Source: Trypanosoma brucei
Taxonomy: Eukaryota
Assembly: GCA_000002445.1 (NCBI GenBank)
Contig: CM000207.1
Location: 1,248,001 to 1,312,000 of the forward strand
DNA length: 64,000 bases
Direction: 5' to 3'
Part shown: piece after piece, positions 1-39,327 of the stretch
How positions within the stretch are numbered: position 1 is the stretch's first letter
Layout of the letters: each line of letters opens with the position of its first letter
Position numbers and translations under genes: made by a program
The notes under the pieces: model-generated
Told to the model about the DNA's origin: nothing
The model's input: only the letters and a program-made list of their open reading frames with translations
The model's database searches: none

Positions 1-1016
1 ACCTCATCTCCTGAATCTTATTAGTAATGTGTAAAGAAAAAAGAAAGTAAAGAATCATTACACTCAATGCTTCTATCATTGCATATTTTGAATGTTTGTA
101 AGTAAGCTAAGCTATTATATTGTGCGTATATTTATATTTTTTCTTCCCCTGGTAAAAGAGTAATGAATAAGAAGAGCTTATTCAAAAGAAAAATACTGAA
201 GTGTAGTAGTGAAAACAACAATGCTTGCAGCAACTGAAAGAGCAGTGAGTGCACAAATGAATATGCTCATGCAATGCCTTCAACTTCACGCACGTTTAGC
301 ATAATATGAGTTACAGAGGCATCACTTAGTAGAAAAAAATAATAAAGCGTGGAAAAATAATAATAATAATAATAATAGTGGTAATCGTAATACCAAAGAA
401 ATAGAGGTTATAGGGGTGGCAATAATAGTAACAAATTTACTATATATGGAAAAGAAAGTGTCGTATTCTCGAAAGTAATAAAGAGAGTAATAAGAAAAGG
501 AAGAAGTGCAACACTGAATATTTTACTGGTTGAAACTGATTCGAAGAGAACATGATATCAATAGAGTTGTAGGTGCTTCTCAATTCAGTAAAATGGTTGC
601 GACCACACAAATATGTTTTCCCTCTCATGCACAAACTCTCCTTCCTTTCCTCTCTTTGTTTCTTACTCATATGCCTTCATTTTCTTATATTTTTGTTCTC
701 ACTTTTCTAAACCTTCAATTCGCTTCGTTATAAAGCCACTCAAATCTCGAACTACCAGTTTTGATAAATGCACCATGTCGAGTAAAACTTCCCCATGAGG
801 ACAGAAAACATGTTGACAAGAGGAGTGACATAATCATTCACTGGTTAGAGTCCACACTCGCAACAATGGAAAGAAATAAATCAGAAGTAAAACAACAAAG
901 AGAAAAACAAATTATATGGAAACACCAGCTTTCCCATTCCTCTCTTATCGCCTCAATATATCTTTCTTTCTTTCCTTTCTCCCTACAAACATTTGCCTCT
1001 TTCCTATACTGATAAT

Positions 1017-1310
1017 TTATTGAGTTGGTTGCTGCTCACTTTGACACTGTGTAAAGATTTCCCATGCCCATTTACATGGTGCCGCATTGCCTTCATTTGC
1101 TTCCAAACATTTTGCATAAGTTTGGACATGAGCTGCACAGGCACCGTTACCAACTTGTTGTGCCACCTGTTGCAACTCAGTGGGTTGTGCAGGCGGGGCA
1201 TTGCGGTCGAAGAGCATATGTGAAATGCCGTGGCCAATGACGGAACCGGCTGCAACTGATGCCACATTTCCAAGGAGACCGCTACCCATTCCACCACGCA
1301 GCACGTACAC
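1017..1310 (-). CDS. CHCH-domain (twin Cx9C, CHCHD2/Mix17-like) protein, 5'-truncated array copy
   Basis: Gly-rich hydrophobic 'GGMGSGLLGNVASVAAGSVIGHGISHM' segment followed by CAAHVQTYAKC and CKWAWEIFTQC (two C-x9-C). The copy starts at MYVLRGG and lacks the N-terminal region of the terminal copy. Confidence 0.55.
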   Translation of the reverse strand: MYVLRGGMGSGLLGNVASVAAGSVIGHGISHMLFDRNAPPAQPTELQQVAQQVGNGACAAHVQTYAKCLEANEGNAAPCKWAWEIFTQCQSEQQPTQ

Positions 1311-2153
1311 ATTTGTTACCTGAGGTTGCGGTTGCTGAGCAGTTGTCTGGTGCGTGTTTTGATGCTGTTGTCGTGTGCCAAAGAAAATTATGAAATATAT
1401 CCAATAAGTGTTTCTGCAACGAATAAGTAAGGTTATGTGAAACTAAAACACATAAAAGGATCACTGCTTTCCATAGTTCCTGCATGAGCAGAGAATTGTT
1501 GGCACATAACATCTACTAACACTAGCCATACTGACAGCAACTTATTCCTCCTGCCCTCCATCCTTGCACACACACCTCACAGTAACCAGTAACACTTCAC
1601 AACTATTTTAAACATCTGGCTTATTGTCTCAACAAAAGTCAGAGGGTTAGTAACTTTCCTCGTGTCGCATGCGAGGTTGCTGCAAAATGCGAAGAGTTCC
1701 ACCTTATCGCACACACATATCAAATACAAAGAGTAATAATTAAGTAATGTCGCGTAACTGTTTTAGTTATAATTCAACGTGAAGTGTTACGGATCCTAAT
1801 TCCTTTCAGATTGGAAACCGCAAACCATACAGTCCTGCTTCTTGTTACAAGTCAAGTGGGACATGCTAATTGGATTCAACTTCAATTAATTCCGTCATTT
1901 GCAGGTAGCAATAACATCTATCCTAAGAATTGTTATTTGCATTTAAAGGGTGAAATTGAGTGCATTCAGATAAAACAAAATAAGACTCATAGCAACAGCA
2001 AAAAGAGACTCTTTAGGGTTTATGGCAAACACAATCAATGAACAAACACACTATACCATTAACACAATTAAATTCCAAATACTATAACACATGTATTCTG
2101 TTCCAAAAAGTTACAATAAGTATTATGGTAATCACATCATAAGATTATTCCGG

Positions 2154-3263
2154 TCAAATTAAAAAGCATAAAAATGAAATTAGAAGTGCAAATAGTTTTT
2201 CCATCATATCTACATTTTGGTTATAAGCATAAGCACCATCAAAGGGTTTCCTCCTCATGTAAGATAACATTGGTAGCAACATTGTATCATCAAGAAGGCA
2301 TTGCTCCCTCTGTGCTGCGGTAAGATTGAGCCATGAGTTTTCAAGATACATTTTGTCAAGTTCCGCCTTTACACTGGGAGTGCTGTAACATGTTTCGGCA
2401 GAGCAAGCGGTGCAACTGCGTTTCTTCATTCCTTCCTCAAAATTTCGTGTCAACGACTTTAACGTTTCCTTTAAGTCCTGGAGGGAAGCAAGTGCTGCAT
2501 TTATCCTTGTCTCTTGAGGACCGGCGATGTATTGCGTAATGTTTTTGTCGCATCGTTTCTTCTCCTTTGTGATGCTGGCTTGTTGTTCGTCAATATCTTC
2601 CTGTAGGCTCTCAATACTTGCACTCATTTCCTTTAATTTTGTAAGTTTATGATGGCATTTTCCGCTTTCCTCTTTCTTTTTGTCTTGTTCTCGTAGCACA
2701 GTGGCCACTTGATCTTCCTTCTTATTAAGTTCGATTTGCAAATCTGTAACTTTTTGTTTGTCCGCCCCCGTTTGGCTAGTTACTGTTATATTGCACAAAC
2801 CTCTTTTTTCTACTTCGTTTTGTAAAGGCTTGTTTTTCTCAACCAATTCATTTAGAGTTTTATCGTTGTCGCAGGTCCAAAGCTTAGGTTCCGTATCATG
2901 TTTCAGAGAATAGCAAAATATCCACGTTTTATCAACTTCAAAAAAATTTTCACTATTTGAAAAAAATCTCCTCCCGTAACCACTGTAATCATCTCCCCTC
3001 CACGTTACGTCACTGCATCGTTCATCACTTGCTCTCACAGTTAAGCAAAATATCAGCAACAATAATCCAAACAGTATTCGCATCTTCCTAATAATCTTAT
3101 AGCAGTTATCACGGAACAAAGCACGCATATATTTTTTCCATAAACACATTTGCATAAGAATAACCAAATTTACCATTAATGGAACAAAACCAACTGTACC
3201 GATTCGCAAAATGATATTATCATGATAATTAACTAACATGTATGATATCCATAAAAATTCCAT
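2154..3263 (-). CDS. Gene A (variant 1): secreted coiled-coil Cys-framework protein with C-terminal hydrophobic GPI-type signal. The likely true start is the Met at 3083 (MRILFGLLLLIFCLTVRA signal peptide).
   Basis: Long minus-strand ORF. Signal-peptide-like N-terminus, many N-x-S/T sequons, a conserved C-terminal module CSAETCYSTPSVKAELDKMYLENSWLNLTAAQREQCLLDD...MEKLFALLISFLCFLI, and a hydrophobic extreme C-terminus. Confidence 0.75.
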   Translation of the reverse strand: MEFLWISYMLVNYHDNIILRIGTVGFVPLMVNLVILMQMCLWKKYMRALFRDNCYKIIRKMRILFGLLLLIFCLTVRASDERCSDVTWRGDDYSGYGRRFFSNSENFFEVDKTWIFCYSLKHDTEPKLWTCDNDKTLNELVEKNKPLQNEVEKRGLCNITVTSQTGADKQKVTDLQIELNKKEDQVATVLREQDKKKEESGKCHHKLTKLKEMSASIESLQEDIDEQQASITKEKKRCDKNITQYIAGPQETRINAALASLQDLKETLKSLTRNFEEGMKKRSCTACSAETCYSTPSVKAELDKMYLENSWLNLTAAQREQCLLDDTMLLPMLSYMRRKPFDGAYAYNQNVDMMEKLFALLISFLCFLI

Positions 3264-3359
3264 TATTAATTCACATAGTGGAAAGAAATCTCTGCTGATA
3301 CTGACAGATTAATAAGTAAGAAAAGATACGAACCCAACATATTTTATTTCCATAACTGT

Positions 3360-4208
3360 TTACATGTTTTCATTATATTTTGAATTACTCTCCTCATTAC
3401 CCTCATGTGACACCCCGCATTTAACACCTGATTTTTTCCATCCATCTTTTCCATATAATTTATCCAAATTTTCCTTTATGTGCACATCATCCCAACAAGT
3501 CCCAGCGTCACATGCGGGACAATTATTATTTCCAAGTTTTTCCAGCTGTTGTTCCTTCAGCTCTATTGCTCTCTTAACGTATTGAATTTCATCTAAGACT
3601 TTCTCCAATCTCTCTTTGTAATTCCCCTCTGTCCATATTTTCCTGTTTTCACACTCTTTTTCTTCCTGTTTAAAAAGTGCATCCACTCGTTTTTTTTCAT
3701 CCTGAAGGCTCCTTACCTTGCCTTCGGAACCAGCCATTCTCCCAATATCCTCTTCGCACTGTTTCTTTTCTCGATCCACCTGTGTGCACGCTGCCCGAAG
3801 GCGCACAACTTCCTTGTCTTTCCCACCAATTCGCCCCCGTAGCTGTTCGGCTTCACGGTCTAGCTCCATCCGTCTCTCATGCACTTTCCTTTTACAAAAG
3901 GATATATCACCTCCACTACTCCAATTGAATCTGTTTGTAATGAGGTCTGTTGGTTGCTCATCGCTTGAAATATCACAAAGCCATAACATTTCATTTGCTC
4001 CACCTATTCTTTCGCTCCTGTTGCATATCATCCACTTATGATTTTTTACCAAGAGGTCATCATTAGCCTTCATCACAGCCACCTTATCATCAACCTCTCC
4101 ATCCTTTTGGATTCTAACACATTTGACAGCCTCCACCCTTTCTGTAAAAGCCAAAAACAATATCAACCCCGCCAAAGAAAAAAACATAAGTGTCCCATAC
4201 TCTTTCAT
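3360..4208 (-). CDS. Gene B (variant 1): secreted paralog of gene A without a C-terminal anchor signal
   Basis: Starts with the signal peptide MKEYGTLMFFSLAGLILFLAF. Coiled-coil middle. C-terminal module CPACDAGTCWDDVHIKENLDKLYGKDGW is homologous to the gene A module. Ends ...KYNENM with no hydrophobic tail. Confidence 0.75.
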   Translation of the reverse strand: MKEYGTLMFFSLAGLILFLAFTERVEAVKCVRIQKDGEVDDKVAVMKANDDLLVKNHKWMICNRSERIGGANEMLWLCDISSDEQPTDLITNRFNWSSGGDISFCKRKVHERRMELDREAEQLRGRIGGKDKEVVRLRAACTQVDREKKQCEEDIGRMAGSEGKVRSLQDEKKRVDALFKQEEKECENRKIWTEGNYKERLEKVLDEIQYVKRAIELKEQQLEKLGNNNCPACDAGTCWDDVHIKENLDKLYGKDGWKKSGVKCGVSHEGNEESNSKYNENM

Positions 4209-6804
4209 ATTGTTAGTTCACACTATATATCCTTCAAACACTTTCTTGTCCTTGTTAACAAATACATATACCCAAACCAAATGAAATAATAGCAACAGTG
4301 AGTGTTAACTATAGTGACAGCAGCTTCTTTTCTTACCTTACCTTACCTTACCGTGGCACTGAATCTGCTTCCTCATTGACACACGGCACAATGGCAAGAC
4401 ACAAATAAACTTAAAACTAAAAATTAACAAAAAATATATATGTGATCCAAATACAAAATAGGTACAACAACATGTGCATTCAAATGCAAACCTAACTCAG
4501 AAAAAATACACGAAATAAATGAACACATGTATTCCGATTAGCACACGCATATATGAATATCCTTTGTCAAAGTCAGTTAACAGTTTTTTCCCTTAGCAAT
4601 CCTTATTCCATCCCCGCATGTCTTAAATTCTATTTCCCACAGCCTACAACACATATCAGATGCGCTACCACTTCTATCCTAGTGCCACAAACTCACATTA
4701 ATCAAATTTCCTTCGTCACACCTCTTTCCTCTGCACGCAGTTAGAGTTCAACAAACGCAGCAGCATCATAACTCTAGAAATGCCGGTAATGCGATTAGTC
4801 TCAAGAACAAACAATTAATACTAACGGGCTGCATCTCTCACTACAATCCACATAACAACACACCCCATGAAATATGAGAACTTTTGGTGACATTATATCG
4901 TTTAGCATTTCCTACCAACATTCAAAAGGATTTGCCACACATCACAATTAGTTACTGTATATTATAAAGCATCGTGAAATGGTGTAGCAGTACGAGAAAA
5001 GGGGAGTCTCTAGTCCCTCTCCCGTAACTTCATCATTTCAATAAATGCTAACAGTATTCACGACCCCATACAAAAAACAAGGAACAACAACATATGGGAT
5101 ATTTTACTGAATCCCACTCTCTACACATCACAGTGTAACCTGAAATGCACTCTTCACTTCGAGCTGCAGTAAACATGATAATTCCCATAATGCTCAATGA
5201 AAAGATAACAGAAATATATAACATATGATAGGTAATACATGATATATATTCCAGCACTTTTGTTGCTATTCCCAGAGATTCAACATTTTAGGAAACAAAA
5301 TATACAGAATCAACATTACTCCAATTGTATCAGCCTAACAAGACACTGAATTGAGGAAATTGTGTGAAACTTAAGTACTGGAAATGCGAGATATCATAAA
5401 CATTCCACGATTGGACTCAATGAAAACAAATGCAATCTTAAAGTTAGTATAACTAATGCATGGAATGACTGGAATTGTTGGAAATGAAGAATTTAATATA
5501 ACTAAAAAAAAATAATAGTATTTTCATCCGATATGGGAGCAAATATGATAGAATACCACAACAGTAATCTCAGTAGTTGAGATGCCAATAACACAGTTAA
5601 GTCACAGTTGCAGCATAAACACTTCTGGAAAGACTCCATAAAGGGAAAGAAAACTAATCATATTTCGAAGACTCAATTAGGCGTGGAAGAGAAACGGCAA
5701 CTGGTACAAAATAAATGTAACTGCAGGAACGCAGTGACTCCAAGTGGACATAAACCTAAGGAACTGATGTGAAACCTCATCTCCTGAATCTTATTAGTAA
5801 TGTGTAAACAAAAAAAGAAAGCAAAGAATCATTACACTCAATGCTTCTGTCACTACATATTTTGAATGTTTGTAAGTAAGCTAAGCTATTATATTGTGCG
5901 TATATTTATATTTTTTCTTTCCTTACCAAAAGAGTAAGGAATAAGGAGAGCGTATTCAAAGGAAAGATACTGAAGTGTAGTAGTGAAAATAACAACTCTT
6001 GCAGCAACTGAAAGAGCAGTGAGGGCACAAATGAATATGCTCATGCAATGCCTTCAACTTCACGCACGTTTAGCATAATATGAGTTACAGAGGCATCACT
6101 TAGTAGAAAAAAATAATAAAGCGTGGAAAAATAAAAATAATAATAATAATAGTAATAGTGGTAATCGTAATACCAAAGAAAGAAAGAGGTTATAGGGGTG
6201 GCAATAATAGTAACAAATTTACTATATATGGAAAAGAAAGTGTCGTATTCTCGAAAGTAATAAAGAGAGTAGTAAGAAAATGAAGAAGTACAACACTGAA
6301 TATTTTACTGGTTGAAACTGATTCGAAGAGAGCATGATATCAATAGAGTTGTAGGTGCTTCTCAATTCAGTAAAATGGTTGCGGCCACACTAATATGTCT
6401 TCCCTCTCATGCACAAACTCTCCTTCCTTTCCTCTTTTTGTTTCTTACTCATATGCCTTCATTTCCATCTGATCTTCTTTATTCTCACATTTCTAAACCT
6501 TCACATCACTTCGTTACAAAATCACTCGAATCTCGAACTACCAGTTCTCATAAATGCACCATGTCGTGTAAAACTTTTCCATGAGACCAGAAAAAATATT
6601 GACAAGAGGAGTGATACAATCATTCACTGGTTAGAGGCCACACTCGCAACAATGGAAAGAAATAAATGAGAAGTAAAAAGAAGGACAAAGCGAAAAACAA
6701 ATTATAGGGAGACAGTAACTCTTCCATTTCTCCTCCATTGCCTCAATATATCTTTTTCTTTCCTTTGTCTCTACAAACATTTGCTCCTTTCCCATACTGA
6801 TAAT

Positions 6805-7182
6805 TTATTGAGTTGGTTGCTGCTCACTTTGACACTGTGTAAAGGTTTCCCATGCCCATTTACATGGTGCCGCATTGCCTTCATTTGCTTCCAAACATTT
6901 TGCATAAGTTTGGACATGAGCTGCACAGGCACCGTTACCAACTTGTTGTGCCACCTGTTGCAACTCAGTGGGTTGTGCTGGCGGGGCATTGCGGTCAAAG
7001 AGCATATGTGAAATGCCGTGGCCAATGACGGAACCGGCTGCAACTGATGCCACATTTCCAAGGAGACCGCTACCCATTCCACCACGCTGCACGTACACAT
7101 TTATTACCTGAGGTTGCGGTTGCTGAGCAGTTGTCTGGTGTGTGTTTTGATGCTGTTGTTGCGGCAACGTTTCATGTGCCAA
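6805..7182 (-). CDS. CHCH-domain protein, array copy with alternative N-terminus (MAHETLPQQQHQ...)
   Basis: Same twin Cx9C and Gly-rich region as the other copies. His/Gln-rich N-terminal extension. No MTS-like segment. Confidence 0.55.
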   Translation of the reverse strand: MAHETLPQQQHQNTHQTTAQQPQPQVINVYVQRGGMGSGLLGNVASVAAGSVIGHGISHMLFDRNAPPAQPTELQQVAQQVGNGACAAHVQTYAKCLEANEGNAAPCKWAWETFTQCQSEQQPTQ

Positions 7183-7954
7183 AGAAAATTAGGAAACACA
7201 TCCAATAAGTGCGTCTGCCACGAATATGTAAGGCTATGTGAAACTAAGACACATAAAAGGATCACTGCTTTCCATAGTTCCTGCATGAGCAGAGAATTGT
7301 TGGCACATAACATCTACTAACACTAGCCATACTGACAGCAACTTATTCCTCCTGCCCTCCATCCTTGCACACACACCTCACAGTAACCAGTAACACTTCA
7401 CAACTATTTTAAACATCTGGCTTATTGTCTCAACAAAAGTCAGAGGGTTAGTAACTTTCCTCGTGTCGCATGCGAGGTTGCTGCAAAATGCGAAGAGTTC
7501 CACCTTATCGCACACACATATCAAATACAAAGAGTAATAATTAAGTAATGTCGCGTAACTGTTTTAGTTATAATTCAACGTGAAGTGTTACGGATTCTAA
7601 TTCCTTTCAGATTGGAAACCGCAAACCATACAGTCCTGCTTCTTGTTACAAGTCAATTAGGACATGCTAATTGGATTCAACTTCAATTAATTCCGTCATT
7701 TGCAGGTAGCAATAACATCTATCCTAAGAATTGTTATTTGCATTTAAAGGGTGAAATTGAGTGCATTCAGATAAAACAAAATAAGACTCATAGCAACAGC
7801 AAAAAGAGACTCTTTAGGGTTTATGGCAAACACAATCAATGAACAAACACACTATACCATTAACACAATTAAATTCCAAATACTATAACACATGTATTCT
7901 GTTCCAAAAAGTTACAATAAGTATTATGGTAATCACATCATAAGATTATTCCGG

Positions 7955-8959
7955 TCAAATTAAAAAGCATAAAAATGAAATTAGAAGTGCAAATAGTTTT
8001 TCCATCATATCTACATTTTGGTTATAAGCATAAGCACCATCAAAGGGTTTCCTCCTCATGTAAGATAACATTGGTAGCAACATTGTATCATCAAGAAGGC
8101 ATTGCTCCCTGTGTGCTGCGGTAAGATTGAGCCATGAGTTTTCAAGATACTTGTTGTCAAGTTCCGCCTTTACACTGGGAGTGCTGTAACATGTTTCGGC
8201 AGAGCAAACACTGCAATTGTTTTTCTTTATTGCTTCCTCAAACATTTGTGTCGTCAAATTCAGCTGTTTCTTTAGGTCGTGGAGAGAAGCTTTTTTCTTT
8301 TTCAAGATTACTTTTTTGTGATTAGTGATATGATGTGTAATATTGTGATTGCATTGTTGCTTTACCTTCTCTATTTCATCTCTCTTTTCTCTGTTTGCTG
8401 TTTCGAGAGTTGCATTTGTTTGACTTTTGTCTCTTAACGTTTTTGGATCCTCGATACATGGTGGGTTTTTTTGCTTTGCTCCAGTGCTTTTTTTGTAATT
8501 TTCATTCTCGACCCCTAACTGCCGGAGTTTATCCTTCAATTTTTCAATTTTTTCTTTATGCACTCTTATTTGAGTTGCCACAGTACTGTCGCATAGATTT
8601 CCGCCCTCCACACTCTCTCGCAAAAGTTCGTGATTCTCGATTAAGTCTTTAAATGTTTTATCATTGCTACAACTCCAAACCTTTCCGCTTGTAAAATCAT
8701 TAGACGCATCGCAAAACATCCACTTTTTATCATTTCCAAAAAGTTTCTCCCCACCCTTCAAAACAAAACTCCTCGCATCATCGACGCCCTCCTCTCTGTA
8801 AACATCTTCCCTCTCTTTTATATAATAGCATGGATTATCATCCGCCCATATTGTTACGCAAGATATCAGCAACAACACTCCAAATAGTATTTGCATTTTT
8901 CTAATGCTCCTAGAGTAGATGATATGAAATAAAGCACGCGTATATATTTTCCATAACAC
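7955..8959 (-). CDS. Gene A (variant 2): GPI-signal-bearing coiled-coil Cys-framework surface-type protein. The likely true start is the Met at 8896 (MQILFGVLLLISCVTIWA).
   Basis: Conserved C-terminal module and hydrophobic tail. Cys framework: KKWMFC, W-C-NDKT, LCDST, QQCN, CSVCSAETCY. Sequons NATL, NHNIT, NLTT, NNCS. Confidence 0.75.
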   Translation of the reverse strand: MLWKIYTRALFHIIYSRSIRKMQILFGVLLLISCVTIWADDNPCYYIKEREDVYREEGVDDARSFVLKGGEKLFGNDKKWMFCDASNDFTSGKVWSCSNDKTFKDLIENHELLRESVEGGNLCDSTVATQIRVHKEKIEKLKDKLRQLGVENENYKKSTGAKQKNPPCIEDPKTLRDKSQTNATLETANREKRDEIEKVKQQCNHNITHHITNHKKVILKKKKASLHDLKKQLNLTTQMFEEAIKKNNCSVCSAETCYSTPSVKAELDNKYLENSWLNLTAAHREQCLLDDTMLLPMLSYMRRKPFDGAYAYNQNVDMMEKLFALLISFLCFLI

Positions 8960-9172
8960 ATTTGCATAAGAGTTACAGAATTCACGATTAACATGGCGAA
9001 ACCAATTTTACCGATTCATGAAATGATATTATAATGATAATTAACCAAAATGTATGATATCCATAAAAAAATCCATTATTATTTCACATAGTGGTAAGAA
9101 ACAACTGCTTAAACTGACAGATTAATAAGTAAGAAAAGATACAAACCCAACATATTTTATTTCCATAACTGT

Positions 9173-10048
9173 TTACATGTTTTCATTATATTTTGAATGA
9201 TTCCCTTCAGTATCTTCATGTGACACCCCACATTTACCTCCTGATTTTGTCCATCCATCTTTTCCATATAGTTTATCCAACTCTTCCTTTATTTTCACAT
9301 CATCCCAGCAAGCTTCAGCGTCACATGAGGGACACTTATTAATTCCAAGTTCTTCTAGTTGCTGTTCCTTTAGTTCTATTGCTTTCATAACATTTTTGAT
9401 TTCTTCATCAATTTTTTCAAGTTCAATATCGTATTCCTTTTCCATATTTCGCTTAATATTTTCACACTCTGTCATTTCCTTTTCAATAAGAGAGTTCATT
9501 CGAGCACCTTCATTTATGATGTTCTGTATCTTGGTATCAGTATCTGTTATTTTTTCTATCTGATCTTGGCATTCCTGCTTTGTCTCCTGTGCTTTTGCAC
9601 CCAATATCTCCAGGTTTTTATTTATCATATCTTGCTCCACAATTTTACTGCTCAGCTGTATCTCCTCATCCTTAATTCTTTGGATCTCTTCCAGCACCTT
9701 CTTTTTACAGGTAGTTACGCTGCTTACATCATTACTCCAATTGAATTTGTTAACGAGAGTTGTGGGTGTCCCATCAATAGAGGCGTCGCACATCCAAAAC
9801 ACTTTATTTGCTTCTCCCACCCTATTAGTGACGTTGCATATCATCCATTTGTGACGTCTACTCACGAAGTGATCACCATTTTCTATCACAGCCTCCATCA
9901 CTCCTTCCACCTCCTCCCTTCTCACCATACAGGTTTTGGCTTTCGACTCGCCAGTGAAAACCAACAATATCACTCCCGCCAATGATAAAAACATAAGTGT
10001 CCCATACTCTTTCATATTGTCACCTCGCATTATATATCCTTCAAACAC
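9173..10048 (-). CDS. Gene B (variant 2): secreted anchorless paralog. The likely true start is the Met at 10015 (MKEYGTLMFLSLAGVILLVF).
   Basis: Signal peptide, HKWMICNVTN...WMCDAS framework, long heptad-like coiled-coil, CPSCDAEACWDDVKIKEELDKLYGKDGW module. Confidence 0.75.
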   Translation of the reverse strand: MFEGYIMRGDNMKEYGTLMFLSLAGVILLVFTGESKAKTCMVRREEVEGVMEAVIENGDHFVSRRHKWMICNVTNRVGEANKVFWMCDASIDGTPTTLVNKFNWSNDVSSVTTCKKKVLEEIQRIKDEEIQLSSKIVEQDMINKNLEILGAKAQETKQECQDQIEKITDTDTKIQNIINEGARMNSLIEKEMTECENIKRNMEKEYDIELEKIDEEIKNVMKAIELKEQQLEELGINKCPSCDAEACWDDVKIKEELDKLYGKDGWTKSGGKCGVSHEDTEGNHSKYNENM

Positions 10049-10190
10049 TTTCTTGTCCTTACCATCAGATACACGTAAACAAAATGGAACAATAGCAACA
10101 GCGAGTGTTAATTATAGTGACAGCAGCTTCTTTTCTTACCTTACCTTACCTTACCGTGGCACTGAATCTGCTTCCTTATTAACATACTGC

Positions 10191-10245
10191 ACCATCTCAA
10201 GACAGAAAATTGATACTAAAAATTAACAAAAAGAACATAGATGTG
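10191..10245 (-). promoter_or_regulatory. T-rich polypyrimidine tract ~150 nt upstream of gene B (repeated in each array unit at 4380-4440, 15936-15990 and 21676-21730)
   Basis: The reverse complement reads catctatgttctttttgttaatttttagtatcaattttctgtcttgag. Confidence 0.45.
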
Positions 10246-23043: not shown

Positions 23044-24510
23044 ACCTCACCTCCTGAATCTTATTAGTAATGTGTAAACAAAAAAAGAAAGCATAGAATC
23101 ATTGCACTCAATGCTTCCATCATTGCATATTTTGAATGTTTGTAAGTAAGCTAAGCTATTATATTGTGCGTATATTTATATATTTTCTTCCCCTGGTAAA
23201 AGAGTAAGGAATGAGAAGAGCTTATTCAAGAAAAATACTGAAGTGTAGTGGTGAAAACAACAACTCTTGCAGCAACTGAAAGAGCAGTGAGCGTACAAAT
23301 GAATATGCTCATGCAATGCCTTCAACTTCACGCACGTTTAGCATAATGTGAGATACAGAGGCATCACTTAGTAGAAAAAAATAATAAAGTGTGGAATAAT
23401 AATAATAATAATAGTGGTAATTGTAATACCAAAGAAATAGAGGTTATAGGGGTGGCAATAATAGTAACAAATTTACTATATATGGAAAAGAAAGTGTCGT
23501 ATTCTCGAAAGTAATAAAGAGAGTAATAAGAAAAGGAAGAAGTGCAACACTGAATATTTTACTGGTTGAAACTGATTCGAAGAGAACATGGTATCAGTAG
23601 AGTTGTAGGTGCTTCTCAATTCAGTAAAATGGTTGTGACCACACAAATATGTTTTCCCTCTCATGCACAAACTCTCCTTCCTTTCCTCTTTTTATTTCTC
23701 ACTCATATGCCTTCATTTCCTTATCTTTTTCTTTGTTCTCACTTTTCTAAACCTTCACATCACTTCGTTACAAAGCCACTCAAATCTCGAACTACCAGTT
23801 TTGATAAATGCACCATGTCGAGTAAAACTTCCCCATGAGGACAGAAAACATGTTGACAAGAGGAGTGACATAATCATTCACTGGTTAGAGTCCACACTCG
23901 CAACAATGGAAAGAAATAAATCAGAAGTAAAACAACAAAGAGAAAAACAAATTATATGGAAACACCAGCTTTCCCATTCCTCTCTTATTGCCTCAATATA
24001 TCTTTCTTTCTTTCCTTTCTCCCTACAAACATTTGCCTCTTTCCTATACTGATAATTTATTGAGTTGGTTGCTGCTCACTTTGACACTGTGTAAAGGTTT
24101 CCCATGCCCATTTACATGGTGCCGCATTGCCTTCATTTGCTTCCAAACATTTTGCATAAGTTTGGACATGAGCTGCACAGGCACCGTTACCAACTTGTTG
24201 TGCCACCTGTTGCAACTCAGTGGGTTGTGCTGGCGGGGCATTGCGGTCGAAGAGCATATGTGAAATGCCGTGGCCAATGACGGAACCGGCTGCAACTGAT
24301 GCCACATTTCCAAGGAGACCGCTACCCATTCCACCACGCTGCACGTACACATTTGTTACCTGAGGTTGCGGTTGCTGAGCAGTTGTCTGGTGTGTGTTTT
24401 GATGATTATGTTGTTGTTGTTGATGTGGTGGTGGTGTTGTGCGTGCGGGTGAAGCCGCAGCGGCGGGGCGCGGAGATGAGGCTGAACGACGAGTGCGAGC
24501 CATTTTTGCG
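23044..24510. repeat. Terminal partial array unit (spacer + intact CHCH gene); array/unique-sequence junction near 24,420-24,510
   Basis: Homology to the first ~1.4 kb of each unit ends inside the CHCH ORF N-terminal coding region. Sequence beyond is unique. Confidence 0.8.
24057..24503 (-). CDS. CHCH-domain (CHCHD2/Mix17-like) protein, full-length terminal copy with Arg/Ala/Pro-rich N-terminus (MTS-like)
   Basis: 148 aa: MARTRRSASSPRPAAAASPAR..., a His/Gln-rich linker, the Gly-rich helix, then two C-x9-C motifs. The N-terminal 30 codons are unique sequence outside the repeat. Confidence 0.7.
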   Translation of the reverse strand: MARTRRSASSPRPAAAASPARTTPPPHQQQQHNHQNTHQTTAQQPQPQVTNVYVQRGGMGSGLLGNVASVAAGSVIGHGISHMLFDRNAPPAQPTELQQVAQQVGNGACAAHVQTYAKCLEANEGNAAPCKWAWETFTQCQSEQQPTQ

Positions 24511-25268: not shown

Positions 25269-25721
25269 TCACGCCTTGTTGGCGTATTTCTTTGTCCATT
25301 CCCGTGCAACCTTCATGGCTTCAGCTTCATTACGTTTCCATGCTCCTGCCACTTCATTGTCAAGCGGATCATCGGGGTTTGGACTGGCCATCAATAGTTG
25401 AATGCTGAGGAGTACTTGAGCAATTTGTAGCGCTGGGGACCATTTGTCTTTGATGACGTCGAGGCAAATGCGTCCCAACTTATCCACGTTGGGATGATAA
25501 ATACGTGTAAGAAACCGCACCTTCAATGGTACCATCGGGTACTCTTCCGGGAGGAAAAGTTCAAGTTCAAAAATGCCACCTTCATAACTGCTTTGTGGAG
25601 GGCCACGAATTGTCACATGGAAATGACGCGGGTTCTCAGGGGAGGGCGTTGCGGTAATGCCTTCCGGTGGGTCCTTCCGCATCTTTTCCGTTTCTTTAAT
25701 AATACGAGGTGTCAGCGTCAT
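25269..25721 (-). CDS. UBC13: Ubiquitin-conjugating enzyme E2, UBC13 (UBE2N)-like
   Basis: 150 aa. [26 protein letters not shown] active-site region (HPN plus catalytic Cys). Near-canonical UBC13 signature [22 protein letters not shown]. Confidence 0.9.
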
Positions 25722-37792: not shown

Positions 37793-38359
37793 TCAGTTGG
37801 GATCCATCGTCAGTTCCATGATAGCATTGACGATATCTCCCTTGTTGTTCCGAAGGGCGCGGATTGCTCCAATGCGGTCCGTTTTGCCTTGTGCCATAAC
37901 CACAGCAATCTCCTTATCGTCGAATTCGCCTTCCACAATCTCGACATCGTCGGGAGTCTGTTTGCTCTCAGATGGGGCAGCTGCTGCAGGAGTTTCACCA
38001 GCAAGCTCAGAGGTTTCCTCTCCTGCAGTTCCCACCTCCTCCACAAGGGCGCCAGACACCGCGCGAGCTGCGGCTTCCTGCGTTTGCATCGTTGTGTCGC
38101 CAAGCTGAGCTTCACCAAAGATTAGGAATGTGTTGGTTCCTGGAAAGCGGTACACCTCGGGTTGGTTCACCACAAAAGAGAGCGCCGCACGTTTGCGAAT
38201 GTGTACCTTAGAGATGTTTGGCTCAGGTTTCAAACCCATCTTGGCCATAGCCTTTGCGTAGCGCTTGGATGGCTTGGAAGCCTGTTGAGTGTCAGCAGCT
38301 TCGAGGGTTGGGACCTCGTCGTCTTCCACTGGAGGGTTTTGAACATCGTTAGCGCTCAT
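37793..38359 (-). CDS. NACA: Nascent-polypeptide-associated complex alpha subunit (NAC-alpha), copy 1
   Basis: NAC domain (NISKVHIRKRAALSFVVNQPEVYRF...LIFGEAQLGD) and C-terminal UBA-like IRALRNNKGDIVNAIMELTM. Confidence 0.9.
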   Translation of the reverse strand: MSANDVQNPPVEDDEVPTLEAADTQQASKPSKRYAKAMAKMGLKPEPNISKVHIRKRAALSFVVNQPEVYRFPGTNTFLIFGEAQLGDTTMQTQEAAARAVSGALVEEVGTAGEETSELAGETPAAAAPSESKQTPDDVEIVEGEFDDKEIAVVMAQGKTDRIGAIRALRNNKGDIVNAIMELTMDPN

Positions 38360-38760: not shown

Positions 38761-39327
38761 TCAGTTGGGATCCATCGTCAGTTCCATGATAGCATTGACG
38801 ATATCTCCCTTGTTGTTCCGAAGGGCGCGGATTGCTCCAATGCGGTCCGTTTTGCCTTGTGCCATAACCACAGCAATCTCCTTATCGTCGAATTCGCCTT
38901 CCACAATCTCGACATCGTCGGGAGTCTGTTTGCTCTCAGATGGGGCAGCTGCTGCAGGAGTTTCACCAGCAAGCTCAGAGGTTTCCTCTCCTGCAGTTCC
39001 CACCTCCTCCACAAGGGCGCCAGACACCGCGCGAGCTGCGGCTTCCTGCGTTTGCATCGTTGTGTCGCCAAGCTGAGCTTCACCAAAGATTAGGAATGTG
39101 TTGGTTCCTGGAAAGCGGTACACCTCGGGTTGGTTCACCACAAAAGAGAGCGCCGCACGTTTGCGAATGTGTACCTTAGAGATGTTTGGCTCAGGTTTCA
39201 AACCCATCTTGGCCATAGCCTTTGCGTAGCGCTTGGATGGCTTGGAAGCCTGTTGAGTGTCAGCAGCTTCGAGGGTTGGGACCTCGTCGTCTTCCACTGG
39301 AGGGTTTTGAACATCGTTAGCGCTCAT
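38761..39327 (-). CDS. NACA: NAC-alpha, copy 2 (identical tandem duplicate)
   Basis: Translation identical to 37793..38359. A ~695 bp duplicated block with a 968 bp period. Confidence 0.9.
   Translation of the reverse strand: MSANDVQNPPVEDDEVPTLEAADTQQASKPSKRYAKAMAKMGLKPEPNISKVHIRKRAALSFVVNQPEVYRFPGTNTFLIFGEAQLGDTTMQTQEAAARAVSGALVEEVGTAGEETSELAGETPAAAAPSESKQTPDDVEIVEGEFDDKEIAVVMAQGKTDRIGAIRALRNNKGDIVNAIMELTMDPN

Follow-up and report, generated by a model that had tools for sequence, protein, structure and literature searches.

Could a trypanosome hold two paralogous surface proteins by a single glycosylphosphatidylinositol (GPI) anchor, as in the transferrin-binding heterodimer of ESAG6 and ESAG7, using an unrelated protein family? 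The question is raised by two adjacent genes, here called A and B, in a 64,000-nucleotide stretch of contig CM000207.1 (the window, which is the whole of the DNA analysed). Exact protein matches give its source as Trypanosoma brucei brucei TREU927, and a match in the literature places it on chromosome 9. A preliminary description made from the sequence had proposed that the genes are an anchored/unanchored paralog pair encoding an uncharacterised heterodimeric receptor or coat component. As far as sequence predictions go, the design is indeed that of an anchored and an anchorless paralog; the probability that the two products form a single-anchor heterodimer we put at roughly 0.4. Both open reading frames (ORFs) lie on the minus strand where they had been placed, the ends given for them being bacterial-style GTG starts and the annotated coding sequences shorter. 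The neighbours are also co-amplified, as had been proposed: a 5.75-kb unit that carries, in the direction of transcription, gene B (about 285 aa), gene A (about 310 aa) and a small CHCH/Mix17-like gene occurs four times, followed by a partial fifth copy. We number the pairs 1 to 4 along the window; the pair under study is pair 2.

A and B are true paralogs whose homology, judged from the alignments, extends over the whole ectodomain. BLASTP aligns them with 24% identity over 229 residues (E 6e-12), and hhalign, comparing seven A-type with five B-type sequences, gives a probability of 99.0% (E 8.2e-18, 244 columns), in agreement with the paralogy first proposed. They share their domain order: a signal peptide, a head of about 80 residues with four cysteines, a heptad region spanning some 125 residues, and a four-cysteine module. 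The features by which the pair was originally recognised are present in both proteins, namely an N-terminal hydrophobic segment in the hydropathy profile, the N-proximal KWMFC/KWMIC and W-C motifs, the long heptad-like region, and the C-terminal C-x2-C-x-A-x2-C-[YW] and K-x-E-L-D-x2-Y-x4-W patterns. Ten cysteines of the mature proteins align between the two types: all 12 sequences have nine of them, and a single sequence is without the tenth, C147. The remaining invariant residues are W59, W74, K243, L246, D247, Y250 and W255. The best conservation between A and B is found in the membrane-proximal module, which comprises C228, C231, C236 and C266 (A numbering) and the invariant K-x2-L-D-x2-Y-x4-W. 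Conservation rises toward the C terminus from a minimum at aligned residues of about 125–175, where paralog identity is 8–24% in both proteins, and the heptad-repeat region is the most variable block of A. The richness in N-x-S/T sequons ascribed to both proteins holds for the A types (3–9 sequons) and is weaker in the B types (2–5), with none in the helical region of the pair-2 B. For the A genes of pairs 2 and 3 (Tb09.v1.0500 and 0530), Table 1 of Savage et al. (2012) predicts no N-glycosylation, yet the gene A of pair 2 has five sequons.

The two proteins differ at their C-terminal ends. In A just two segments are hydrophobic, namely the signal peptide (residues 5–14) and the final 13 residues (mean Kyte–Doolittle 3.07), whereas the sole hydrophobic segment of B is its signal peptide and its C terminus is a polar tail. 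As the criterion for GPI addition we applied small omega and omega+2 residues 8–12 residues upstream of the hydrophobic tail. Plausible omega sites in A are D286 (D-G-A) and A288 (A-Y-A), 25–27 residues from the end, so that A combines a signal peptide, a hydrophobic tail without cytoplasmic residues and small omega and omega+2 residues, and its product is predicted to be GPI-anchored. Published predictions point the same way. In the list of Savage et al. (2012), BigPI and FragAnchor agree in calling Tb09.v1.0450, 0470, 0500, 0530 and Tb09.211.0010 GPI-anchored, and all are SignalP-positive; under our identifier mapping these five map exactly onto the five A-type genes. A GPI-type tail in A only, as first described, is thus seen both in the hydropathy profiles and in the literature.

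The identifier mapping was obtained from gene order. The GenBank series EAN76800–76811 runs A, B, A, B, x, A, B, x, A, B, A, B, matching Tb09.v1.0450–0540 plus Tb09.211.0010/0020, which in current IDs would be Tb927.9.7850–7960, and the mapped array lies directly before Tb927.9.7980 (CHCH) and Tb927.9.8000 (E2 conjugase), as in the window. From order and count, with no sequence look-up by ID, we infer that A is Tb927.9.7900 and B is Tb927.9.7910; one CHCH copy of the array is in the same way taken to be Tb927.9.7980.

The DNA behind B suggests how the difference arose. Directly 3' of the B stop codon, in frame with B, lies a relic of GPI-signal coding sequence that reads TVMEIKYVGFVSFLTY and then a stop. 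It is colinear with the end of gene A, which codes for DMMEKLFALLISFLCFLI before its stop (in fuller context, NVDMMEKLFALLISFLCFLI), and a 2-nt indel relative to A produces the TAA stop of B. The pair-2 relic aligns with a score of 40, compared with 22 ± 4 for base-shuffled controls. The observed score was attained by 1 of 1000 shuffles for pair 2, by 5 of 1000 for pair 1 and by 131 of 1000 for pair 4. The B type shared by pair 4 and T. b. gambiense carries an alternative tail in another frame (ending in KCYPKVFREIIKNVTEACKQLWK), which likewise stops ahead of the hydrophobic relic. Because the DNA after the stop is colinear with the GPI-signal region of A and the 2-nt indel creates that stop, the anchorless state of B appears to be derived, and descent of B from a GPI-anchored ancestor by signal loss is most likely. 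ESAG7 stands in the same relation to ESAG6, being truncated before the GPI signal. The relic after the stop of B is a new observation of this analysis.

Equivalent relics follow other B genes at about 3309..3359 and 20585..20635 on the minus strand, in frame in pairs 1–3 and out of frame in pair 4. The spacer between B and A, 276 nt long, must contain both the 3' untranslated region of B and the trans-splice signals of A. The relic is its most pyrimidine-rich part, and one may speculate that trans-splicing of gene A now uses it as a polypyrimidine tract. The B and A genes of pairs 1, 2 and 3 share a reading frame (7955..10015 in pair 2), interrupted by several stop codons in the spacer, five in 92 codons in the case of pair 2.

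The pairing itself is well preserved. All eight A and B ORFs of the window are intact, and the order B then A is kept in all four units and in the single pair of T. b. gambiense, where we read the gene order UBC, CHCH, B, A directly. The T. equiperdum contig stops 170 bp upstream of its A-type gene, so that any partner there would lie outside the sequence. Pairs 2 and 3 are 100% identical. Between units, identity is mostly 80–100% in the non-coding DNA and over the 3' third of gene A (down to about 70% in a few comparison windows), whereas the ectodomain-coding parts of A and B share only 44–66% DNA identity; this contrast between ectodomains and flanks is also a new observation. Synonymous sites of the ectodomains are saturated between paralogs (synonymous divergence, dS, 0.6 to >2; nonsynonymous divergence, dN, 0.35–0.9), and together with the homogenised flanks this leads us to read the ectodomains as old, maintained variants inside an otherwise homogenised repeat. 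Their divergence carries no simple signature of positive selection: a test gave no support for it, paralog dS being saturated and dN/dS being 0.34–0.39 between pair 4 and T. b. gambiense.

That last comparison is informative in its own right. Pair 4 of TREU927 and the gambiense pair are 82–83% identical in amino acid sequence, with a dS of 0.22–0.29 and flanks that are 79–84% identical. This divergence far exceeds the usual level between the two subspecies and points to an unusually polymorphic and mosaic locus, the genes of which are nevertheless, to judge from dN/dS, under purifying selection; at this ratio both A and B look functional. Purifying selection is also seen on the Cys module of B despite a dS of 0.26–1.06 there. 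Mosaic or ancient alleles are suggested by the fact that it is mostly the N-terminal heads that differ between pair 4 and the gambiense pair.

How A and B might fold and meet is less clear-cut. Monomer AlphaFold2 models built from the shallow 12-sequence alignment show A as a helical hairpin (pLDDT, the predicted local distance difference test, 50), and B (pLDDT 65, predicted template-modelling score, pTM, 0.25) with a four-strand beta head at pLDDT of about 55–62 and a single continuous helix of 120 residues, 109–228, at about 90. Beta strands in the N-terminal head are predicted by both models at low confidence, and Foldseek found no match of the B model in the PDB at E <= 0.001. Heptad-phase analysis divides the helical region into three segments of about 40, 30 and 45 residues, with the register shifting beside the conserved C147 and C182 and, in the A types, Pro or Gly at the breaks. 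A self-contained three-helix bundle stapled by disulfides, which would be C102–C182 and C147–C228, would account for the pattern just as well as a hairpin or intermolecular coiled coil. As the low-confidence models disagree and the heptad data fit both, these two topologies are the candidates. The T. equiperdum A-type protein, which is without the otherwise conserved C147 and has an extra cysteine at position 25 (C-Y-C), may through this swap point to the disulfide partner of C147.

For the single-anchor heterodimer, the sequence of events would be as follows. A passes through a 20-residue linker into a GPI-addition signal. B terminates shortly ahead of what is left of such a signal and would therefore leave the endoplasmic reticulum (ER) without an anchor of its own. 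Binding to A would then keep it at the surface of the parasite, with contact made through the shared helical stalk, the conserved membrane-proximal module or both. The product would be a heterodimer with one GPI anchor, the ESAG6/ESAG7 design realised on an unrelated sequence family, with the variable head and stalk facing the host. The complex, its surface location and its role as a receptor are what we infer. The strict one-to-one pairing, kept in every unit and in the single-pair strains, and the purifying selection on both genes make association plausible. The module, as the best-conserved region between A and B, is a candidate for a common interface, and the 120-residue helix modelled for B, which as drawn could not stand alone, would favour a partner. 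The stalk of A is more basic than that of its cognate B in four of five pairs (for example +12 vs −10 in pair 2).

Several results weigh against this arrangement. The charge complementarity fails in pair 1, and counting charges at the e and g positions of a parallel, in-register coiled coil gave no preference for A–B over A–A or B–B. The monomer models have low confidence (pTM 0.25–0.26). The three roughly equal heptad segments with a conserved cysteine at each boundary would also fit a three-helix bundle that requires no partner, and known trypanosome receptors use the three-helix-bundle fold as monomers. Expression evidence is thin, Savage et al. (2012) having reported low reverse transcription PCR (RT-PCR) signals for the A-type genes, with some members apparently undetected. 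The accessible text of a bloodstream-form surface proteome has no Fam7 entry (Fam7 being the published family into which these genes appear to fall, see below), and in the accessible supplement text of a spatial-proteomics study the gene IDs were seen nowhere except in the orthogroup table.

The first of these points leave considerable room, short of even odds, for the two proteins acting independently. A would then be anchored as a monomeric three-helix bundle or a homodimer, and B would be soluble and released into the host or vector milieu or the lumen of the flagellar pocket, for example as a decoy, scavenger or effector, their pairing merely reflecting the history of tandem duplication. 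Both the closed bundle suggested by the cysteine-bounded segments and the lack of an A–B preference in the e/g count would be expected here. So would the cysteines of B: their number is even and all align to those of A, which leaves no obvious free cysteine for an intermolecular bond. Some members of the ESAG9 family are released from the cell, a precedent for such a fate. Independent action does less well with the fact that B adjoins A in every unit and in the single-pair strains and is under purifying selection, and with the best-conserved surface being one that A and B have in common. GPI-less secretory proteins, moreover, reportedly traffic poorly in bloodstream T. brucei, so that a soluble B would be exported inefficiently.

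The expression data bear on a different possibility, which we regard as improbable: that the array is fast-evolving and weakly expressed with little or no surface role, its products being luminal in the ER or endosomes or its genes simply decaying, and that the contrast between GPI-positive and GPI-negative members has no functional meaning. The low RT-PCR signals and the absence of the family from the accessible surface-proteome text would fit, as would a copy number that varies from one to five across strains with no known phenotype. Decaying genes would not, on the other hand, be expected to leave eight of eight ORFs intact, a dN/dS well below 1, or ten cysteine positions aligned between A and B (nine of them invariant) at 24% identity. 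The microarray signal of the Fam7 example gene, furthermore, was higher in bloodstream forms than in procyclic forms by a factor of about three (Jackson et al. 2013).

The family appears to be one that has been catalogued and hence is not new. It fits Fam7 of the cell-surface phylome, described by Jackson et al. (2013) as T. brucei-specific with 10 members and exemplified by Tb09.v1.0540, which maps to the B type and is recorded with a signal peptide and without a GPI signal. It also fits tandem array 85, listed by Jackson (2007) with a dS of 0.56 and a dN of 0.27. Carnes et al. (2015) report Tb927.9.7950/7960 as tandem and fivefold in TREU927 and single in T. evansi and T. b. gambiense. In the accessible part of the orthogroup table, orthogroup {7860, 7880, 7910, 7940, 7960} has five T. 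brucei members and none from T. congolense, T. vivax or T. cruzi. Literature searches on the accessions, the gene-ID prefixes (old and new) and the family name yielded catalogue entries and no functional or structural study, and no published description of the family as two paralog types arranged in GPI-positive and GPI-negative pairs. The label "uncharacterised" is therefore right with respect to function and wrong in so far as the genes are annotated and listed, including as a copy-number-variable locus: the family is catalogued yet functionally blank.

Similarity of design raises the question of whether A and B are themselves members of the variant surface glycoprotein (VSG), ESAG6/7 and PAG superfamily that have diverged extremely, and thus true relatives of the transferrin receptor. 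We consider this very improbable. One T. equiperdum A-type protein bears the UniRef name "Trypanosomal VSG domain containing protein", and the long helices and a GPI signal ending in a VSG-like short hydrophobic tail are features that such an origin would explain. The searches find no trace of it. Pfam, run on A, B and all 12 members, returned coiled-coil noise and no match to a VSG model even at E = 5, so the UniRef label was not reproduced. A family profile searched against the PDB gave coiled-coil noise and no transferrin-receptor, VSG or other trypanosome chain even at E = 10. The HMMER family profile searched against 1.84 billion representative proteins recovered two clusters, both of the family itself, and thus no homolog outside T. 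brucei subspecies. The ectodomain of A and B is, in addition, about 100 residues shorter than that of ESAG6/7, and the B model has no PDB counterpart in the Foldseek search. That the primary sequence does not resemble ESAG6/7 had been noted from the start, and none of the profile, Pfam and PDB profile searches links them. By these comparisons A and B are not members of the ESAG6/7 family and would be at most an independent re-invention of its design.

The parallel with ESAG6 and ESAG7 (Fam15) is nevertheless extensive. In both systems the genes are adjacent, co-transcribed paralogs present in multiple variant copies, one with a GPI signal and the other truncated before it, and the anchored member has an additional stretch ahead of the signal, of 24 residues (ESAG6) or about 20 (A). 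The single-anchor logic is described in the transferrin-receptor literature and in the context of Jackson et al. (2013). The differences are equally plain. There is no detectable sequence or profile similarity; identity within a pair is 24% for A/B and about 80% for ESAG6/7; and ESAG6/7 lie in the VSG expression site, whereas A and B belong to a chromosome-internal RNA polymerase II array between housekeeping genes. The transferrin receptor is an established heterodimer; that of A and B is putative. Closer in within-pair divergence are the tandem Fam15 pairs of T. congolense (Jackson et al. 2013), each with a member of a GPI-positive and of a GPI-negative clade at a large distance (p about 0.6). 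Those pairs are homologous to ESAG6/7 and a-type VSG and are subtelomeric, whereas neither the accessible orthogroup data nor the HMMER profile search shows a homolog of the A/B family from T. congolense, T. vivax or T. cruzi.

Another comparison is with the three-helical-bundle receptors (HpHbR, the factor H receptor, ISG65 and GARP/BARP/MISP), which like A and B have an ectodomain of about 250 residues and a long helical stalk, and which the predicted GPI anchoring of A also resembles. The three-helical bundle is described in the literature as a common motif of trypanosome surface receptors. The PDB profile search matched the A/B family to none of them. We know of no beta-rich N-terminal head or C-terminal four-Cys module in that receptor class. 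Tb927.10.5680/Tb927.10.5690 (Cook et al. 2026, preprint) belong to a different locus and family. Outside the trypanosomes, the 6-Cys pairs of Plasmodium (P12/P41, P52/P36 and Pfs48/45–Pfs230) follow the same principle, a GPI-anchored paralog tethering an anchorless one, and the P52 and P36 genes are adjacent. They differ from A and B in their beta-sandwich s48/45 fold and in coming from an unrelated organism.

The array lies in the core region of chromosome 9 and belongs neither to a VSG expression site nor to a subtelomere. All its genes are on the minus strand, co-directional with those for UBC E2, TRAPPC13, RPL10, NAC and pescadillo, and its GC content is 36–39% compared with 45–54% in the housekeeping part downstream. 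The rest of the window is of the housekeeping kind and includes genes for UBC E2, TRAPPC13, WASH, RPL10, two NAC-alpha, a DnaJ-TMEM185 protein, pescadillo, a peptide deformylase, a phosphatase and a rhomboid. The UBC gene is at 25269..25721 and a CHCH copy at 24060..24413, matching Tb927.9.8000 and Tb927.9.7980. The two NAC-alpha genes (NAC plus UBA), at 37793..38359 and 38761..39327 on the minus strand, are spaced 968 bp apart and are identical over at least 300 nt. By tblastn, a CHCH/Mix17-like (CHCHD2-type) coding sequence is present in all five units at 96–99% identity (1020-1373, 6808-7182, 12566-12919, 18307-18651 and 24060-24413, all on the minus strand), and gaps in the GenBank accession series suggest that only some of these copies are annotated. 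The 6805..7182 ORF does not begin with an ATG; for the T. b. gambiense counterpart the annotation gives 148 aa. In every unit some 2.6 kb of AT-rich DNA without a long ORF separates the CHCH gene from the gene B that follows downstream (for example 4209..6804, minus strand). Rfam and tRNA scans of the window, these stretches included, found nothing.

Table 1. Positions of the A/B genes, their parts and the surrounding repeat array in the window
Feature	Positions	Strand	Remarks
Gene A	7955..8896	-	313 aa, EAN76805; probably Tb927.9.7900, old ID Tb09.v1.0500
Signal peptide of A	8843..8896	-	MQILFGVLLLISCVTIWA; from hydropathy, SignalP-positive in Savage et al. (2012)
N-terminal head of A	8591..8842	-	residues 19-102; four conserved Cys and KWMFC...W-C
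Heptad-repeat helical region of A	8216..8590	-	residues 103-227; three heptad segments, register shifts near C147 and C182
Cys module of A	8099..8215	-	C228-C266, CSVCSAETCY...KAELDNKYLENSW; conserved, common to B
A-specific C terminus	7958..8098	-	20-residue linker LLDDTMLLPMLSYMRRKPFD, then GPI-type signal (GAYAYNQNVDMMEK and 13-residue hydrophobic LFALLISFLCFLI)
Spacer between B and A	8897..9172	-	276 nt; short, AT-rich
GPI-signal coding relic	9122..9172	-	directly 3' of the B stop
Gene B	9173..10030	-	285 aa, EAN76806; probably Tb927.9.7910; no anchor
Signal peptide of B	9938..10030	-	from hydropathy
Head of B	9707..9937	-	N-terminal, Cys-containing
Heptad region of B	9335..9706	-	helical
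Cys module of B	9230..9334	-	conserved, common to A
Polar tail of B	9176..9229	-	C-terminal end
Tandem array	1..24430	-	5.75-kb unit, four copies and a partial fifth; end coordinate approximate
Pair 1	2154..4208	-	A 2154..3083 (EAN76802), B 3360..4208 (EAN76803)
Pair 2	A 7955..8896, B 9173..10030	-	pair under study; annotated coding sequences
Pair 3	13700..15775	-	A 13700..14641, B 14918..15775; 100% identical to pair 2
Pair 4	19443..21508	-	A 19443..20378, B 20636..21508; probably Tb927.9.7950/7960
CHCH/Mix17-like small gene of the pair-2 unit	6805..7182	-	unrelated to A and B

Few T. brucei receptors for host macromolecules are known, and the transferrin receptor is the sole single-GPI-anchor heterodimer among them; its design is central to current ideas on GPI valence and retention in the flagellar pocket. 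The boldest extension of our reading is that bloodstream T. brucei has in A and B a second heterodimeric receptor on a single GPI anchor, one that arose apart from ESAG6/7 and is kept in the flagellar pocket by GPI valence, with the five divergent pairs representing alternative specificities for host ligands. We think this unlikely as a whole; the variant transferrin receptors offer a model for such pair-specific ligand binding by copy-number-variable pairs. We see the locus less as a discovery in itself than as one well suited to a targeted experiment. If A and B do associate, a second, unrelated family of the same design would provide an independent test of the GPI-valence ideas, and the parasite would have a new candidate receptor for a host ligand at a locus that differs strongly between strains and subspecies, TREU927 having five pairs where gambiense and evansi each have one. 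If they do not, the locus would still be a clean case of a GPI-anchored ancestor giving rise to a secreted protein once its signal was lost.

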